Source: a virus
Lineage: Duplodnaviria > Heunggongvirae > Uroviricota > Caudoviricetes
Virus record (IMG/VR): IMGVR_UViG_2579778721_000001
Location: 1 to 6,104 of that record
Reading direction: 5' to 3' (one strand)
DNA length: 6,104 bases
This document shows positions 1 through 4,762 of this stretch, one piece after another. Each line of letters begins with the position of its first letter. Positions within the stretch are counted from its first letter, which is position 1. The notes below the pieces were generated by a model. The model searched no databases. It was not told the DNA's origin and worked only from the letters and a program-made list of their open reading frames with translations. Made by a program: the position numbers and the translations under genes.

Positions 1-351
1 TCACCAGAAAATTGATAACAGAGGGCGTTGCAGCGGGGTTGTCACTTAAGCGTATGGTCAACCTGACAACCCGGTGTCCTCAACGGGGGAAGGAATAACC
101 CCGCCATACTTACCGCCGCGCCATTTCGCGGATTGCCACAACCGGAAGCGCACGGTCGACGAAAATTTAACGACAGGCTATCTATGAACCAGCTACCTCG
201 CCGTGCGCTTTCGCGTTATGGTCTGACTTTTCAGGGAAATATCCTTTCAGTAAACTGTCAGTGCCGGATGCTCACCCGTGTCCGGCGCACGCACTCCACC
301 TCACCCGTGGAGAACTCCTTAATTACCAACCTTAGCTTCGTTGGTTATCTA

Positions 352-570
352 TTAACGCGGGTATGTAATCATTCTGGCAATGCTTAATGCCGCTGCTTTT
401 TCCAGCCTGGTGATATCCTGCTCCAGAGCGGACAGATTTTCAGCCTGCTTAGCTCTGGCTTCATTAGCCCATTTCAGATCCTGCGCTGCATTAATTTTCT
501 GGCGCATCCACTCATAAAGTTCATCATCGGTATAGTCTGGCGCGATGATGACGGGTTCTCGTTTCTGCAT
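352..570 (-). CDS. Hypothetical small protein (72 aa), distal gene of the leftward early operon; YdfC-like by size and position only
   Basis: ORF in supplied track. ATG at 570-568 with a GAGGA Shine-Dalgarno (complement of 577-581) about 6 nt upstream. Tandem in-frame stops TAA/TAG. Same strand and tight spacing with the two upstream small ORFs. Confidence 0.6.
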   Translation of the reverse strand: MQKREPVIIAPDYTDDELYEWMRQKINAAQDLKWANEARAKQAENLSALEQDITRLEKAAALSIARMITYPR

Positions 571-599
571 ACTGATTCCTCGCGGTGCTGTTTCGCTTA

Positions 600-710
600 T
601 CAGCCGTTAGATTTTCCCGAACTGGAAAGCGCCTGTTTAAATTCACTGAAGCTGAGAGCTTCTTCGCCTTCGGCAAGACCATCGAAGTATTCTTCGTAAG
701 CCTTTTCCAT
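600..710 (-). CDS. Small protein, 36 aa (MEKAYEEYFDGLAEGEEALSFSEFKQALSSSGKSNG); middle gene of leftward operon
   Basis: Manual translation of the minus strand; absent from the ORF track, presumably below its length cutoff. ATG at 710-708, stop TGA (complement of 600-602). Start lies 19 nt after the stop of the 730..885 ORF and its stop 29 nt before the next ATG. No clear SD, so it rests mainly on operon context and acidic, non-random composition. Confidence 0.4.
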   Translation of the reverse strand: MEKAYEEYFDGLAEGEEALSFSEFKQALSSSGKSNG

Positions 711-729
711 GATTGTGTCGAAATCCATA

Positions 730-885
730 TCACTCACCTGAGTTTCTTTCCAGCCAGCGACGGGCACCATTTTCGGTTTTAAACGTTTTGCTTTTGGTAT
801 ACGTCATCGCGGTGAATGTGCCGTCCTGGTTGGGAAACACGCCGTACACCAGAGATTCGTTGTTGCCAAGCTCGATAGTATCCAT
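730..885 (-). CDS. Small protein, 51 aa (MDTIELGNNESLVYGVFPNQDGTFTAMTYTKSKTFKTENGARRWLERNSGE); first gene after the pL-like promoter; possibly DUF1391 (YdfA/YdaF-type)
   Basis: Manual translation; absent from the ORF track. ATG at 885-883 preceded by GAGG (complement of 891-894) with a 5-nt spacer. Stop TGA (complement of 730-732). Size and position match the first small gene of Rac/Qin-type leftward operons; family assignment is from memory, not a search. Confidence 0.55.
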   Translation of the reverse strand: MDTIELGNNESLVYGVFPNQDGTFTAMTYTKSKTFKTENGARRWLERNSGE

Positions 886-954
886 GCTGACCTCATTTCC
901 CCTTAACGCCGGGTGGCGGAACTAAAACCTACAGCGCCGTGCTGTTCTTGATAG

Positions 955-977
955 AAATATTAGTAACGCGGATATTT
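955..977. promoter_or_regulatory. Putative operator (OL-type) palindrome AAATAT-N11-ATATTT overlapping the pL -10
   Basis: Inverted repeat AAATAT (955-960) / ATATTT (972-977). Contains the 9-mer AAATATTAG that recurs at 1044-1052 and, inverted, at 1671-1679 in the pR region. Confidence 0.4.
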
Positions 978-985
978 TAAGTCAA
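957..985 (-). promoter_or_regulatory. pL-like sigma70 promoter for the leftward operon
   Basis: On the minus strand: -35 TTGACT (complement of 980-985), 17-bp spacer, -10 TAATAT (complement of 957-962). About 65 nt upstream of the ATG at 885. The -10 sits inside the operator-like motif CTAATATTT. Confidence 0.45.
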
Positions 986-1042
986 CAGTATGGCGTATGA
1001 TATTTTTGATTTGGTAACTATGTAAATGTTTTTTCAAGGGAA

Positions 1043-1056
1043 AAATATTAGTTATA
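1043..1056. promoter_or_regulatory. Second copy of the operator-like 9-mer AAATATTAG (possible OL2 or secondary promoter)
   Basis: AAATATTAGT at 1044-1053 matches 955-964 at 10 of 10 positions (11 of 13 over the extended site). No convincing -35 at 17 bp, so more likely a binding site than a promoter. Confidence 0.3.
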
Positions 1057-1082
1057 CAGCTGATTTGCAGAAGTTATGGCAC

Positions 1083-1112
1083 AAAAAAACCGACTAAGAC
1101 GTCGGTTTTTTT
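1083..1112. terminator. Bidirectional Rho-independent terminator between the repressor gene and the leftward operon
   Basis: A-run (1083-1089), stem CCGAC (1090-1094), loop TAAGAC, stem GTCGG (1101-1105), T-run (1106-1112). The hairpin is followed by a U-run on either strand. Sits 27 nt past the repressor stop. Confidence 0.7.
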
Positions 1113-1138
1113 GTTGTGGATGGGGTAGTGAGCGGTGG

Positions 1139-1600
1139 CTACTGGTTACGTTTCTTTAGTGCCAGCATGTTCTCGAAGGCTTCCTCGTAGAGCTTGTTTA
1201 GTCCACGTAGCTGGTTAAGGAGTTTGGCTTTTTCTGACGCAGGTAGAATCTCGAAGAGGTTAAGTAACTCTGCCTGTTCTTCATTGACCAGCCTCCATCC
1301 TTTGCCTGAAAAGTTATCATCATAAGTATCTGATGATCTTACATAATTCATTAAGTCTTTAAGGTCTTCTCGAATGTCCTCTGGTTTTACCTTTAACAGA
1401 GCCGCAAATTTTAGCGCAGCGTCGGTATTTACCGGTATCTTGCCGTTCAGATACTGGCTAACGGTGCCTTGAGATTCGAATCCCAACAACTCAGCCGCCA
1501 GCTCTTGAGTCAGCTTCAGCTCTTTTTTTCTTGCATTCCATGCGGCTTTTAAATTCTTGCTCGCTTCTGGAGTTGCAATCACTTCGCGTGTTTTTTTCAT
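1139..1600 (-). CDS. Prophage repressor, HTH XRE/cI-type N-terminal domain, 153 aa, no S24 peptidase domain (DicA/RacR-type)
   Basis: ORF in track. The HTH segment QELAAELLGFESQGTVSQYLNGKIPVNTDAALKFAALLKV matches the lambda cI helix-turn-helix pattern ([39 protein letters not shown]). Divergent from a Cro-like gene. At 153 aa it is too short for a LexA-like C-terminal domain. No SD upstream of the ATG, consistent with a leaderless mRNA. Confidence 0.85.
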   Translation of the reverse strand: MKKTREVIATPEASKNLKAAWNARKKELKLTQELAAELLGFESQGTVSQYLNGKIPVNTDAALKFAALLKVKPEDIREDLKDLMNYVRSSDTYDDNFSGKGWRLVNEEQAELLNLFEILPASEKAKLLNQLRGLNKLYEEAFENMLALKKRNQ

Positions 1601-1606
1601 ACATAG

Positions 1607-1634
1607 AGTTTATTTGTTTTACCAATATTATCAA
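1607..1634 (-). promoter_or_regulatory. Candidate pRM-like promoter producing a leaderless repressor mRNA
   Basis: On the minus strand: -35 TTGATA (complement of 1629-1634), 16-bp spacer, -10 TAAACT (complement of 1607-1612), ending 6 nt before the ATG at 1600. Weak hexamers, as expected for an activated maintenance promoter. Speculative. Confidence 0.3.
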
Positions 1635-1648
1635 AGATAGTCTGGCTA

Positions 1649-1677
1649 TTGATCTTTAAAATTAGCGGGGCTAATAT
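1649..1677 (+). promoter_or_regulatory. pR-like sigma70 promoter for the rightward early operon
   Basis: -35 TTGATC (1649-1654), 17-bp spacer, -10 TAATAT (1672-1677). About 30 nt upstream of the cro-like ATG at 1708. Overlapped by the palindrome ATTAGC-GGG-GCTAAT (1661-1675). Confidence 0.5.
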
Positions 1678-1679
1678 TT
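1658..1679. promoter_or_regulatory. Putative OR operator palindrome (AAAATTAGCGGGGCTAATATTT)
   Basis: Inverted repeat ATTAGC / GCTAAT around a GGG centre. The right half CTAATATTT is the reverse complement of the AAATATTAG motif in the pL region and overlaps the pR -10. Confidence 0.45.
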
Positions 1680-1707
1680 GCTCGAGGCATAACGTAGAAG
1701 GTTGGCT

Positions 1708-1983
1708 ATGAACTTAAGAGACTATTTAAAAGAGAAACATATCACCCAGCTACAGTTTGGGAAGCTAACGGGTTTATCTCAGGTGCATGTAAGTCGAGTG
1801 CTGGGGGGCTATGAAAGATTCAGCCCTGAAAAAGCATTACGTGTTGCTGAAGTAACGAATTTCGAGGTTACACCTCATGAACTCCGGCCTGATATTTACC
1901 CGAATCCAACCGACGGCTTACCTGTTGGATTCAAGGCTAACACACCAAATGCATCGGAGTTGATTCATGAAAATCAGGCATGA
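1708..1983 (+). CDS. Cro-like early regulator, YdaS-type HTH protein (91 aa from ATG 1708; the track ORF begins at an upstream TTG at 1702)
   Basis: ORF in track. GAAGG SD (1696-1700) 7 nt before ATG 1708. Divergent from the repressor. HTH-like segment LTGLSQVHVSRVL and a C-terminal ELRPD motif typical of YdaS/Cro-type proteins (from memory). Confidence 0.75.
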   Translation: MNLRDYLKEKHITQLQFGKLTGLSQVHVSRVLGGYERFSPEKALRVAEVTNFEVTPHELRPDIYPNPTDGLPVGFKANTPNASELIHENQA

Positions 1984-2392
1984 GCACATCCGCATGGCGA
2001 TGAATGCCTGGGCGCATCCGGACGGTGAAAAAGTTCCGGCAGCTGAAATAACCCGGGCTTATTTTGAGCTTGGTATGACGTTCCCGGAATTATATGACGA
2101 CAGCCATCCGGAAGCCCTGGCTCGCAATACCCAGAAAATTTTCCGCTGGGTGGAGAAAGACACTCCTGATGCGGTTAAAAAAATTCAGGCGTTGTTACCA
2201 GCGATCGAAAAAGCAATGCCGCCTCTGCTGGTGGCCCGAATGCGCAGCCACAGTTCAGCTTATTTTCGGGAGCTGGTGGAGACGCGGGAACGACTGGTGA
2301 GAGACGCTGATGATTTTGTCGCAGTGGCGATCGCTGGTTTCAACCAGATGAATCGTGGTGGCCCTGCAGGAAATATTGTGGCTGTGCATTGA
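1967..2392 (+). CDS. YdaT-type protein (cII functional analogue), 141 aa
   Basis: ORF in track. ATG 1967 overlaps the upstream stop (1981-1983) by 17 nt, with GGAG SD at 1956-1959. N-terminus MKIRHEHI and overall size match my recollection of the YdaT family; not verified by search. Confidence 0.7.
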   Translation: MKIRHEHIRMAMNAWAHPDGEKVPAAEITRAYFELGMTFPELYDDSHPEALARNTQKIFRWVEKDTPDAVKKIQALLPAIEKAMPPLLVARMRSHSSAYFRELVETRERLVRDADDFVAVAIAGFNQMNRGGPAGNIVAVH

Positions 2393-2463
2393 CTCGCAAT
2401 ATTCATACCGGATCACTTCCGGCAATTTGTGAGTAAAAAGATTCGGTATCAGAAGAGGTGAGT

Positions 2464-3504
2464 ATGGCTAACGCCTGGCTCAGATTATGGCATGACATGC
2501 CAAATGACCCTAAGTGGCGAACAATTGCCAGGGTGTCAGGGCAGCCAATTGCAACAGTGATGGCAGTGTATATCCACCTTCTGGTGAGCGCGTCACGAAA
2601 TGTCACGACATGTCACGGCGTGTCACTACGTGGTCACATTGATGTCACGACGGAAGATTTAGCAAGTGCGCTTGATGTGACGGAAGAAGTAATTGATTCA
2701 ATTTTACAGGCAATGCAGGGGCGGGTACTTGATGGAGATTTAATCACCGGATGGGAAAAACGCCAGGTACTGAAAGAGGACAATGGCAACGTTTCACAAA
2801 CCGCGAAATCCCCGGCAGAGCGCAAGAGAGCGCAGCGCGAGAGGGAAAAATTACGAAAACAGAATGAGGGGTGTCACGACGAGTCACGCATATGTCACGA
2901 CATGTCACGACGAGTCACGACAGATAAAGATACAGATAAAGAATTAAACCCCACACATAACGCGCACGTGCGCGAGAGTGCTCCGACCAGTGAGTCGAGT
3001 GGTACGCCGTTGCAGGCAGCAGAACCTGCATCCCTGGATGGACTGAGCGAACCCATCGGGAAATTTCCGATGGTCGATGACTGGCATCCGTCGCCGGATT
3101 TTCGACGACGGGCTGCGTTGTGGGGGATGGCTTTGCCGGAGCCGGAATTTACACCTGCTGAACTTGCCGCTTTCCGGGACTACTGGGCAGCGGAGGGGAA
3201 AGTTTTCACGCAGGTTCAGTGGGAGCAGAAATTCGCCCGTCACGTAAATCACGTCAGGGCGCAGGTTAAGCCAGTCAGCAAGGGGGTAAACCATGCAGCA
3301 GCACCAGGTGGCACCGCATCACGGGCAGTTCAGGAAATTCGGGCAGCACGTGAGCAGTGGGAACGTGAAAACGGATTTATCAGCGACGGAAACGGTCTGG
3401 AAGCTGTGGGAACTCATGGGGGAGGTTTATTCGAACCGCTGGACCCAGAAGAACGGGGCCGCACCTTCGAAGCTCTGGATTGCACAGATTGGCGCGATGA
3501 CTGA
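2464..3504 (+). CDS. Replication initiator (lambda O analogue): N-terminal DNA-binding region plus DnaT-like C-terminal domain; contains the putative origin
   Basis: ORF in track (GTG 2458; ATG 2464 preferred, GAGG SD at 2455-2458). Residues around FPMVDDWHPSPDFRRRAALWGMALPEPEFTPAELAAFRDYWAAEGKVFTQVQWEQKFARH align closely with the E. coli DnaT C-terminal domain ([59 protein letters not shown], from memory). Iteron arrays lie inside the gene, as in lambda O. Confidence 0.8.
   Translation: MANAWLRLWHDMPNDPKWRTIARVSGQPIATVMAVYIHLLVSASRNVTTCHGVSLRGHIDVTTEDLASALDVTEEVIDSILQAMQGRVLDGDLITGWEKRQVLKEDNGNVSQTAKSPAERKRAQREREKLRKQNEGCHDESRICHDMSRRVTTDKDTDKELNPTHNAHVRESAPTSESSGTPLQAAEPASLDGLSEPIGKFPMVDDWHPSPDFRRRAALWGMALPEPEFTPAELAAFRDYWAAEGKVFTQVQWEQKFARHVNHVRAQVKPVSKGVNHAAAPGGTASRAVQEIRAAREQWERENGFISDGNGLEAVGTHGGGLFEPLDPEERGRTFEALDCTDWRDD
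2591..2651. repeat. Iteron array 1: six direct copies of GTCAC(G/N)(A/N)C at 10-11 bp phasing
   Basis: GTCAC starts at 2592, 2602, 2612, 2622, 2633 and 2644. Spacing is not a multiple of 3, so the repeat is at DNA level, not protein level. Confidence 0.7.
2871..2921. repeat. Iteron array 2: five direct copies of GTCACGAC-type repeat at 10-11 bp phasing
   Basis: GTCAC starts at 2873, 2883, 2894, 2904 and 2914. Same orientation as array 1. Immediately followed by an AT-rich tract. Confidence 0.75.
2922..2947. other. AT-rich tract with direct repeat CAGATAAAGA x2 next to iteron array 2 (candidate DNA-unwinding element of the origin)
   Basis: cagataaagatacagataaagaattaaa is far more AT-rich than the surrounding coding sequence and directly abuts the last iteron, mirroring lambda ori architecture (iterons followed by an AT-rich region). 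Confidence 0.5.
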
Positions 3505-3958
3505 GCAGCAAATCCGACAGGTCTGCCGCCAGTGCATGGACCGCTGCCGGGCGGGTGAAACATGGCCTCCGGACCTGGCTGAGTTTGTGGCGCTGATTTC
3601 AGAAAGCGGGGCCAATCCATTTGGCCTGACGGTGGATGCTGTGATGGAGGAGTACCGCCGCTGGCGTGATGAGTCCTGGCGATATGACGGAAGCGACAAA
3701 TATCCGTGGCCTCAGCCTGTGCTGTACCACATCTGCCTCGAAATGCGTACCAGAGGGATTGAGCGCCAGATGACGCAGGGTGAGTTAAAACGACTTGCGG
3801 AACGGCAACTGACGAAATGGGCAAAGCATGTTGGTAACGGGATGAGTGTTCCGCCAGTGCGACGACAACTGGAAGGGGCGAAACACCCGCAAGGGCCAAC
3901 GCCAATTGAACGGCTGAAACAGGAATACGAACGCCGGAAGGCAGCTGGTTTTATTTGA
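3293..3958 (+). CDS. Lambda P-like replication protein (helicase loader), 221 aa
   Basis: ORF in track. Strong SD AGGGGG (3281-3286) 6 nt before ATG 3293. Colinear similarity to lambda P from memory: WIAQIGAMTEQ vs WVLAFRENGITTMEQ, YPWPQPVLYHICLEM vs YPWKSNAHYWLVTNL, ELKRLAERQLTKWAKHVGNG vs EFRRKAADELVHMTARINRG. The alignment register supports the 3293 start over the downstream ATGs. Confidence 0.7.
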   Translation: MQQHQVAPHHGQFRKFGQHVSSGNVKTDLSATETVWKLWELMGEVYSNRWTQKNGAAPSKLWIAQIGAMTEQQIRQVCRQCMDRCRAGETWPPDLAEFVALISESGANPFGLTVDAVMEEYRRWRDESWRYDGSDKYPWPQPVLYHICLEMRTRGIERQMTQGELKRLAERQLTKWAKHVGNGMSVPPVRRQLEGAKHPQGPTPIERLKQEYERRKAAGFI

Positions 3959-3991
3959 ATCTGAGAAACGATTTTGTCGGAGGAAATTTTA

Positions 3992-4762
3992 ATGGAAACC
4001 GTATTTGACGCACTGAAAGCAATGGGAAAAGCCACATCGGTAGAACTGGCCGCGCGACTTGATATCAGTCGTGAAGAGGTTCTCAACGAGCTGTGGGAAC
4101 TCAAAAGAAATGGCGTCGTTGATAAAACTGGTCACACCTGGTTTCTGGCTGGCGAAGGTGAATCCCGGGTAACCGAAGAGCGGCCAGTAAAATCTGAAGC
4201 ACAGGATATGCTGACCGGGGAGGTCGAACAAAAAGTTACCGCAGACATGATGATTGAGTTTATCGGTCAGGATGGTGCTAAAACGTGTGAGGAACTGGCG
4301 GGTAAGTTCGGCGTCAGTACTCGCAAGGTTGCCTCCACGCTGGCGGTGGTAACCGCAACGGGGCGGCTGGCACGCGTTAATCAGAACGGTAAATTTCGTT
4401 ACTGCATGCCGGGCGATAATTTACCAGCAGAGCCGAAAGCCGCGCTGGTAACGGAAAGTGATGGTAAGGCCTTTCCTCAGCCAGCAGGTGCTGCGTTACC
4501 AGTCCGGGAAGCCGCAACACAGGAAGAAATTAAAACAGAAACTGTGGCGGACATTGTGCAGCCGTTGCCATCGTTTACCGAAACGCAAGCAGATGAGCTG
4601 ATTTTTCCGTCCCTTCGCAGGGCAAACCTGGCGCTGCGCAGGGCGAAAAGTGATGTTCAGAAGTGGGAGCGAGTCTGCGCCGCGCTGCGGGAGGTGAACA
4701 AGCACCGGGATATTGTTCGACAGATTACTGATTCTTCCCGCCGTGTTGTATCGGAAAAGTGA
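3992..4762 (+). CDS. Hypothetical protein with two tandem winged-helix-like modules (256 aa from ATG 3992; the track ORF begins at TTG 3974)
   Basis: ORF in track. GGAGG SD (3979-3983) 8 nt before ATG 3992. Two internal HTH-like repeats (residues about 7-50 and 90-135). Confidence 0.7.

Follow-up and report, generated by a model that had tools for sequence, protein, structure and literature searches.

Two small genes, ydfA and ydfB, at the head of a leftward early operon of the Qin dicBF type

The window, by which we mean the whole 6104-nt stretch of viral DNA that was analysed, carries near its left end three small leftward genes, ydfA, ydfB and ydfC, and at the very edge the first nucleotides of the gene for the small RNA DicF. 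Upstream of ydfA lie a conserved leader, a candidate promoter and a repressor gene (Table 1). The first gene, ydfA, was found just as the initial annotation had described it, as a 51-aa ORF preceded by a good SD sequence. The second ORF proposed there, an acidic one of 36 aa, proved right as to the acidic frame ending at position 600 on the minus strand but probably wrong as to the length. That frame contains three ATG codons, at 770 (56 aa), 728 (42 aa) and 710 (36 aa); the third had been picked, and the 42-aa form is favoured here. Its net charge is -7, against -5 for the 36-aa form. The tight spacing with the 72-aa gene was confirmed, with an intergenic gap of only 1 nt from ydfA to ydfB and one of 29 nt from there to ydfC.

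Table 1. Features of the leftward operon and of its upstream region (window coordinates).
Feature	Position	Strand	Basis or remark
ydfA, 51 aa, DUF1391 protein, first gene of the leftward operon	730..885	-	ORF list
ydfB, 42 aa, acidic helix-loop-helix mini-protein	600..728	-	K-12 b1572 and RefSeq annotation
36-aa ORF of the initial annotation, the C-terminal part of ydfB	600..710	-	
ydfC, 72 aa	352..570	-	1 aa off K-12; PHROG 1744
ydfA SD GAGG (894..891) and 5-nt spacer to the ATG	886..894	-	sequence
ydfB SD AGGTGAG, inside the 3' end of ydfA	733..739	-	4 nt before the ATG
ydfA stop TGA (732..730) and ydfB ATG (728..726), 1 nt between		-	sequence
ydfC SD GAGGA, 6 nt before ydfC	581..577	-	sequence
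dicF sRNA gene, first 9-10 nt, cut by the left window edge	1..10	-	
Candidate pL-like leftward promoter TTGACT-17 nt-TAATAT, sigma-70-like	957..985	-	consensus scan, 9/12
Conserved leader GTTCCGCCACCCGGCGTTAAGGGG, then SD	886..923	-	38 nt before ydfA
Palindrome/hairpin ACAGCACGGCGCTGT, then T-rich run	931..945	-	just downstream of the candidate -10
Terminator-like hairpin, a perfect inverted repeat of 14 bp that has runs of A and of T	1081..1114	.	separates the leftward promoter from the repressor gene
HTH (cI/DicA-like) repressor gene, 153 aa	1139..1600	-	Pfam HTH_3, E 1e-9

Comparison with the Qin prophage of E. coli K-12 identified all three genes. Over window positions 1..923, a stretch bounded by the leader of ydfA on one side and the first 10 nt of dicF on the other, DNA identity to Qin is 97.4%. 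The order, the lengths (51, 42 and 72 aa) and the spacing of the genes are shared with the K-12 dicBF operon (ydfA b1571, ydfB b1572, ydfC b1573). In the K-12 annotation, ydfA spans 156 nt, ydfB follows after a 1-nt gap and spans 129 nt, and ydfC (219 nt) follows after 29 nt, exactly as in the window. The stop-start geometry that ydfA and ydfB have in the window recurs unchanged in K-12 and in strain ABU 83972. At the protein level, YdfA differs from its K-12 counterpart by one residue (E5D, 98% identity), YdfB by two (40/42 residues, 95%) and YdfC by one (99%). The initial annotation had noted a likeness to ydfA-ydfB-ydfC-dicF-dicB at the head of the leftward operon of Qin; these are in fact the same genes, equally spaced.

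Family searches gave the same assignment. YdfA matches the Pfam family DUF1391 (PF07151) with 96.4 bits (cutoff 27.3), its residues 2-49 corresponding to model positions 1-48. It also has the placement of that family, being a stand-alone 51-aa protein encoded in the early leftward region just downstream of a repressor gene and promoter. PHROG 751 matches YdfA (E 5e-36), PHROG 2061 matches residues 1-42 of YdfB (E 6.8e-27) and PHROG 1744 matches YdfC (E 2e-39); all three PHROGs are of unknown function. The locus is common in E. coli: DNA matches to window positions 1..1700, which span the repressor gene, are present in 4376 of 5426 complete genomes; in all, complete genomes hold ~9800 copies of ydfA and ydfB. 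The best complete-genome matches are 99.4% identical and bear the RefSeq PGAP labels 'ydfA: DUF1391 family protein', 'ydfB: protein YdfB' and 'ydfC: protein YdfC', and an ORF identical to that of the window is named 'protein YdfB' in RefSeq. Over its full length the window matches a prophage of ABU 83972 and related strains at 99.8% identity. RefSeq annotation of the three genes covers genomes of 99.4-99.8% identity.

The dicF gene is represented only by its beginning. The reverse complement of window positions 1..10, TTTCTGGTGA, equals the 5' end of K-12 dicF. The left edge cuts the gene after 9-10 nt, and Rfam does not see DicF in the window. In the ABU 83972 locus, where position 3001 corresponds to window position 1, Rfam detects DicF with 76.7 bits at 3009..2958, and dicB and ydfD come after it. 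The gene order is therefore that of dicBF, with ydfABC and the start of dicF in the window and with dicF and dicB continuing in this close relative; the body of dicF, dicB and ydfD of the Qin operon lie beyond the window. In K-12, ydfABC-dicF-dicB-ydfD is one operon under DicA and DicC repression, and dicBF RNA is made as one polycistronic transcript, on which RNase E and RNase III then act (PMC5069750; PMC9438474). The functions of the first three products of the Qin operon are described as unknown (PMC5069750), and a 2024 survey of the y-ome still counts ydfA, ydfB and ydfC as uncharacterised (PMC11551758).

We consider it very probable that 730..885 and 600..728 are real, conserved genes, ydfA and ydfB, and that they form the head of an operon of the Qin dicBF type in a lambdoid E. 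coli prophage. Their identity is not new. ydfA, ydfB and the operon are long known and routinely annotated, and the discovery value is small, as the genes, their order and the operon have been described since the K-12 dicB/dicF work and pipelines annotate them. Accordingly, the expectation that genes of this size are left unannotated does not hold here, both K-12 and RefSeq PGAP annotating them, although it does hold for some phage records, which omit or misname them.

To characterize the selection acting on these frames, we used 80 viral contigs with YdfA and roughly twelve loci of diverse origin (Cronobacter phage phiES15, phage mEp460, Salmonella phage SW-37, phage 683R6, and loci from Citrobacter, Salmonella and metagenomes). 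The pN/pS set for ydfA comprised 19 alleles; a second set comprised 33 gap-free haplotypes. Across the region, 66 of the 80 viral loci align without gaps. Polymorphic sites at codon positions 1, 2 and 3 number 7, 6 and 29 in ydfA, 15, 15 and 26 in ydfB, and 5, 8 and 13 in ydfC. In the annotated frames pN/pS is 0.10 for ydfA, 0.30 for ydfB and 0.37 for ydfC, whereas the same-strand off-frames give 8.9 and 4.9 for ydfA, 0.96 for ydfB, and 1.99 and 0.62 for ydfC. Over the 33 gap-free haplotypes the values are even lower (0.02 for ydfA and 0.19 for ydfB), and internal stops are absent from both genes in all 33. Homologues from Salmonella, Citrobacter and Cronobacter, at 69-78% identity, keep both frame and length. 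Given the gap-free frames, the low pN/pS and the distant homologues that stay in frame, ydfA and ydfB are conserved and constrained; the lack of conservation or the tolerated frameshifts that, according to the initial annotation, would have argued against these genes were not observed for either. Size by itself does not set ORFs like these above chance, given that 31 ORFs of 20 aa or more lie wholly or partly in the first 1.6 kb; we accept ydfA and ydfB as real because of homology and the substitution pattern.

Judging by its sequence context, the main product of ydfB is probably the 42-aa form initiated at ATG 728. This ATG is the sole start with an SD, and it lies 1 nt past the ydfA stop, in a geometry suited to stop-start coupling. 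Neither the window nor any long-form locus has a purine-rich SD within 15 nt of ATG 710. Some loci open the operon with ydfB (phiES15, two from Citrobacter and two from Salmonella). In these, the leader SD precedes the counterpart of ATG 728 by 5-6 nt, and a stop closes the frame 5-26 codons ahead of this ATG, the distance being 5-6 codons for phiES15 and Citrobacter; none of these loci has an SD before M7. BLAST homology with phiES15 begins exactly at ATG 728. Moreover, the first ATG and the length of the six-codon extension are invariant among 23 alleles from four genera, with no stop or indel, and AF2 models residues 3-17 as one helix, placing residues 3-6 within helix 1 at a pLDDT of ~89. 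Both K-12 and RefSeq give 42 aa.

Alternatively, the second gene might start at ATG 710 and encode 36 aa, the six upstream codons being an untranslated spacer. M7 is invariant in 24 aligned homologues, and a large class of homologues of 29-30 aa begins at M7 with an SD of its own; it is represented by SW-37, by two loci from metagenomes and by numerous database entries. Codons 2-6 are also weakly constrained, with a pN/pS of 0.65 (from few sites) compared with 0.20 for the core (codons 7-31); the tail has 0.46. Set against the absence of an SD before ATG 710, the SD and coupling geometry of ATG 728, the uninterrupted extension, its place in the predicted helix and the existing annotations, such a start appears unlikely. 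As far as the sequence goes, it is possible that a 36-aa product, or the 36-aa and 42-aa products together, would be made from ydfB. Of practical use is the revision of the probable ydfB start from that of the 36-aa form to that of the 42-aa form.

Not all copies of the region are intact, and some cryptic prophages tolerate disruption. In the nearest relatives of the window, such as ABU 83972, ydfC is a pseudogene, frameshifted by a 1-nt insertion in an A run (ABU 83972 locus 3927..4146); the window copy is intact. In 9 of the 80 viral loci homology ends at about window position 631. Other sequence there takes the place of the final ~9 ydfB codons and of the whole of ydfC, and what is left of ydfB is joined to a long frame (...KQALRIRMCSHNDAEHKYEK...) that exceeds 130 aa. 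A strain without ydfB is mentioned in one paper. It could be asked whether the ORFs are conserved merely as DNA or RNA, for example because they belong to a long precursor of DicF or to prophage DNA that has spread only recently, and are not functional protein genes. The prevalence of third-position substitutions in ydfA and the pN/pS far below 1 in the annotated frames alone make this very unlikely, even though most copies are more than 95% identical and reside in cryptic prophages, the ydfC frameshift and the ydfB 3' replacement are on record, and the literature offers neither function nor expression evidence for YdfA or YdfB. The retention of frame and length in the homologues from the three other genera, the movement of the genes as separate modules with boundaries at start codons and the confidently predicted compact folds also speak for protein-coding genes.

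The only ORFs of at least 60 aa in this part of the window are 524..733 (-), 585..782 (+) and 713..925 (+), and it is due to the 60-aa floor that the ORF track displays these shadow ORFs and hides ydfA and ydfB. The idea that these are the true genes, being longer (65-70 aa) and open in most haplotypes, is most improbable. All three were rated poor in the initial annotation, and none is annotated in related records (RefSeq relatives, K-12). With pN/pS of 1.66 and 1.25, 524..733 (-) and 585..782 (+) behave as non-coding, and the former has stops in 4 of 33 haplotypes. The pN/pS of 0.18 for 713..925 (+), which is antisense to ydfA, is to be expected, as the coordinates show that it shares its wobble positions with ydfA. 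Thus 713..925 (+) is a trap for coding-potential tests. The practical value of this comparison is in showing that a 60-aa floor hides genuine genes here.

Upstream of ydfA, the candidate promoter has counterparts elsewhere: TTGAC and TAAnnT hexamers are found at the aligned position in Qin, in mEp460 and in other immunity types. The leader that follows is conserved. In all compared loci, which represent several immunity types and genera, it precedes the first ORF, whichever that is (ydfA, ydaG or ydfB), and it follows the pattern GTTCCGCC(A)CCCGGCG(T/A)TAAGGGG plus the SD. The ydfA SD and its spacing are the same in Qin, mEp460, phiES15 and the Salmonella loci. The homology between the window and Qin starts at 923, exactly at the leader. 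The leader contains a 4-bp stem, CGCC/GGCG, for which K-12 provides one compensatory variant (CGCT/AGCG). The leader of the window folds no better than shuffled sequences (z = +0.95), and the consensus structure, made up of the conserved 4-bp stem and a variable 5-bp stem, is weak (-5.8 kcal/mol). An Rfam scan of the whole window revealed no RNA family in 600..885 or in the leader, the only hits being sub-threshold ones to the hairpin at 1081..1114. The leader might have a regulatory role, or it might mark a joint at which mosaic modules have recombined.

The repressor gene and its surroundings distinguish this prophage from Qin. The 153-aa repressor scores only 35 bits against the NCBIfam DicA model (cutoff 101), and no DNA homology to Qin was found upstream of window position 923. 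Where Qin has DicA and DicC, the window has the 153-aa HTH repressor and YdaS/YdaT-like genes. By sequence, the repressor is of an immunity type other than Qin DicA. Hence, the body of the operon is of the Qin type, but the immunity module, and with it the repression of the promoter by DicA and DicC, is not. Because the repressor is not DicA, regulation may differ from that in K-12. On the right, genes at 1702..3958 (+) encode a YdaS-like (HTH) protein, a YdaT-like protein, a protein with a DnaT-like ssDNA-binding domain and a homologue of replication protein P. A Rac/YdaST-like replication and immunity module is thus combined with a Qin-like leftward operon, which makes this a mosaic prophage.

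Plausible operators of the 153-aa HTH repressor can be proposed from sequence repetition. The motif AATATTAGT occurs at 955-964 and 1043-1052 and, inverted, at 1619-1629, and a related copy, CTAATATT, is found at about 1671-1680 in the divergent promoter region. The copies are spread over the leftward and the divergent promoter regions, and one of them overlaps the -10 hexamer of the leftward promoter. The palindrome at 945..931 was also considered as a repeated operator, but it is probably not one, as it has no second copy in the window and AATATTAGT is the repeated motif. A different palindrome occupies the matching place in other immunity types, e.g. ACACCGCACGGTGT in Qin, mEp460 and locus L090.

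This arrangement suggests how the operon might be expressed. In a lysogen, the adjacent HTH repressor would hold the leftward promoter (about 985..957) shut, and derepression would give rise to a single transcript. On this transcript ydfA would be translated from its strong SD. Translation of ydfB would start at ATG 728 through coupling to the termination of ydfA, the stop and the ATG being separated by 1 nt and the SD lying within ydfA, while ydfC would be translated from its own SD. The same RNA would then yield DicF and DicB.

The genes of the operon head appear in various combinations in other phages. BLAST searches against phages showed that ydfA, ydfB and ydfC also occur separately, with homology boundaries at their start codons (query positions 273 and 431). 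A known parallel to the operon head, also pointed out in the initial annotation, is the small-protein operon of the Rac prophage, where ydaG-ydaF lie next to racR and before kilR. Its YdaF is a 51-aa DUF1391 paralogue of YdfA and is likewise encoded at the head of a leftward operon, with the same conserved leader upstream and a cell-division inhibitor downstream. There are also differences. The first gene in Rac is ydaG (44 aa), whose product by eye has no evident resemblance to YdfB; ydfB and ydfC are lacking, and the inhibitor is KilR instead of DicB/DicF.

YdfB has relatives well beyond this type of operon. A search of 1.84 billion representatives with the YdfB profile returned 82 proteins, the majority of them peptides that measure 30-90 aa and contain the motif YExYFxSLxEGEEALSFxEF. 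P0269, a Calx-beta protein, and P0282 are multi-repeat hits that were rejected as spurious motif matches. Short forms of YdfB, of 29-30 aa and ending in ...SFAEFVEALS, are encoded in other prophages. These short-form peptides and gp1 of Vectrevirus phages have the core Y-E-x-Y-F-x-x-L-x-E-G-E-E-A-L-S-F-x-E-F in common with YdfB, and their genes are likewise promoter-proximal or early. In contrast to YdfB, they are devoid of the MDFDTI N-terminal extension and the SSSxKSNG tail, and their carriers are either virulent phages or other prophages, in which they take the first place in gene order. In gp1 of phage ACG-C91 (L093 860..997; annotated as similar to SP6 gp2) the YdfB core makes up the C-terminal part. 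Vectrevirus gp1 is the first annotated early gene, situated about 1.1 kb upstream of an Ocr-like gene. In Cronobacter phage phiES15 an intact ydfB homologue (MDNSTIMEKAYEDYF...) is located at 1501..1629 and is missing from the GenBank annotation.

We tentatively put forward a more far-reaching reading, to which we would give a low probability: that the ~29-residue acidic core of YdfB (YExYFxxLxEGEEALSFxEF) defines a widespread family of phage mini-proteins. The occurrence of the core in the promoter-proximal gene of temperate lambdoid prophages as well as of virulent Vectrevirus podophages would hint at a specific early host-directed role, such as neutralising a host protein or a defence. As a separate point of this reading, the invariant leader GTTCCGCCACCCGGCGTTAA, which precedes the first gene whichever that is, might be an undescribed regulatory or recombination site.

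In the AF2 prediction for YdfA, a disordered N-terminus is followed by three beta strands, and a helix forms the C-terminus; the mean pLDDT is 78.8, and values in the core are close to 90 or higher. YdfB is predicted as a helix-loop-helix (mean pLDDT 84.6), its helices comprising residues 3-17 and 27-39. We conclude that both are small soluble proteins under purifying selection. Fold searches with YdfA against PDB and BFVD and with YdfB against PDB gave nothing at E <= 0.001, and no significant or informative functional match emerged from Pfam, PDB, BFVD and PDB-sequence searches. YdfA showed a loose topological likeness to the N-terminal domain of lambda Int (TM about 0.46-0.49, E > 2), which we do not regard as evidence of relatedness. 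Nor do we build on a relationship of YdfA to the lambda head decoration protein gpD, to which the YdfA profile gave only a weak 19-residue PDB-sequence match (E 0.023). Several phage records label YdfA/YdaF homologues as 'head-DNA stabilization protein D' (e.g. L006 1492..1644). The label was probably propagated from weak gpD similarity and is almost certainly a misannotation. An EF-hand in YdfB was also rejected. Just 1 of 21 members has a weak EF-hand_6 match (E 0.14), no EF-hand is present among the PDB fold hits, and the putative loop, with Leu at position 1 and Glu at position 6, departs from the canonical DxDxDG...E.

YdfA, YdfB and YdfC are functionally uncharacterised, although the constraint on them is clear and a large proportion of E. 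coli genomes encode them. In the literature we found no report of function or translation for YdfA or YdfB, only screen lists and statements of 'unknown function'. The experimental mentions consist of lists from overexpression screens for resistance to oxidants and of lists of Rac genes that perturbation of RacR control induces. Our best guess, offered with low confidence, is that YdfA and YdfB might be accessory early proteins that bind host proteins. The guess draws on gene position and distribution; it is prompted by their behaviour as independent mosaic modules and by the finding that virulent Vectrevirus phages, too, carry the YdfB core in their first early gene.

A further variation concerns the distal part of the leftward operon. 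The closest E. coli genomes contain an extra 575 bp between ydfC and dicF (at window position 331/332; ABU 83972 locus 3332..3906). This insert encodes a 106-aa ORF (MEFKDLP...) and is absent from both the window and K-12 Qin; in mEp460 a related ORF of 121 aa follows ydfA.
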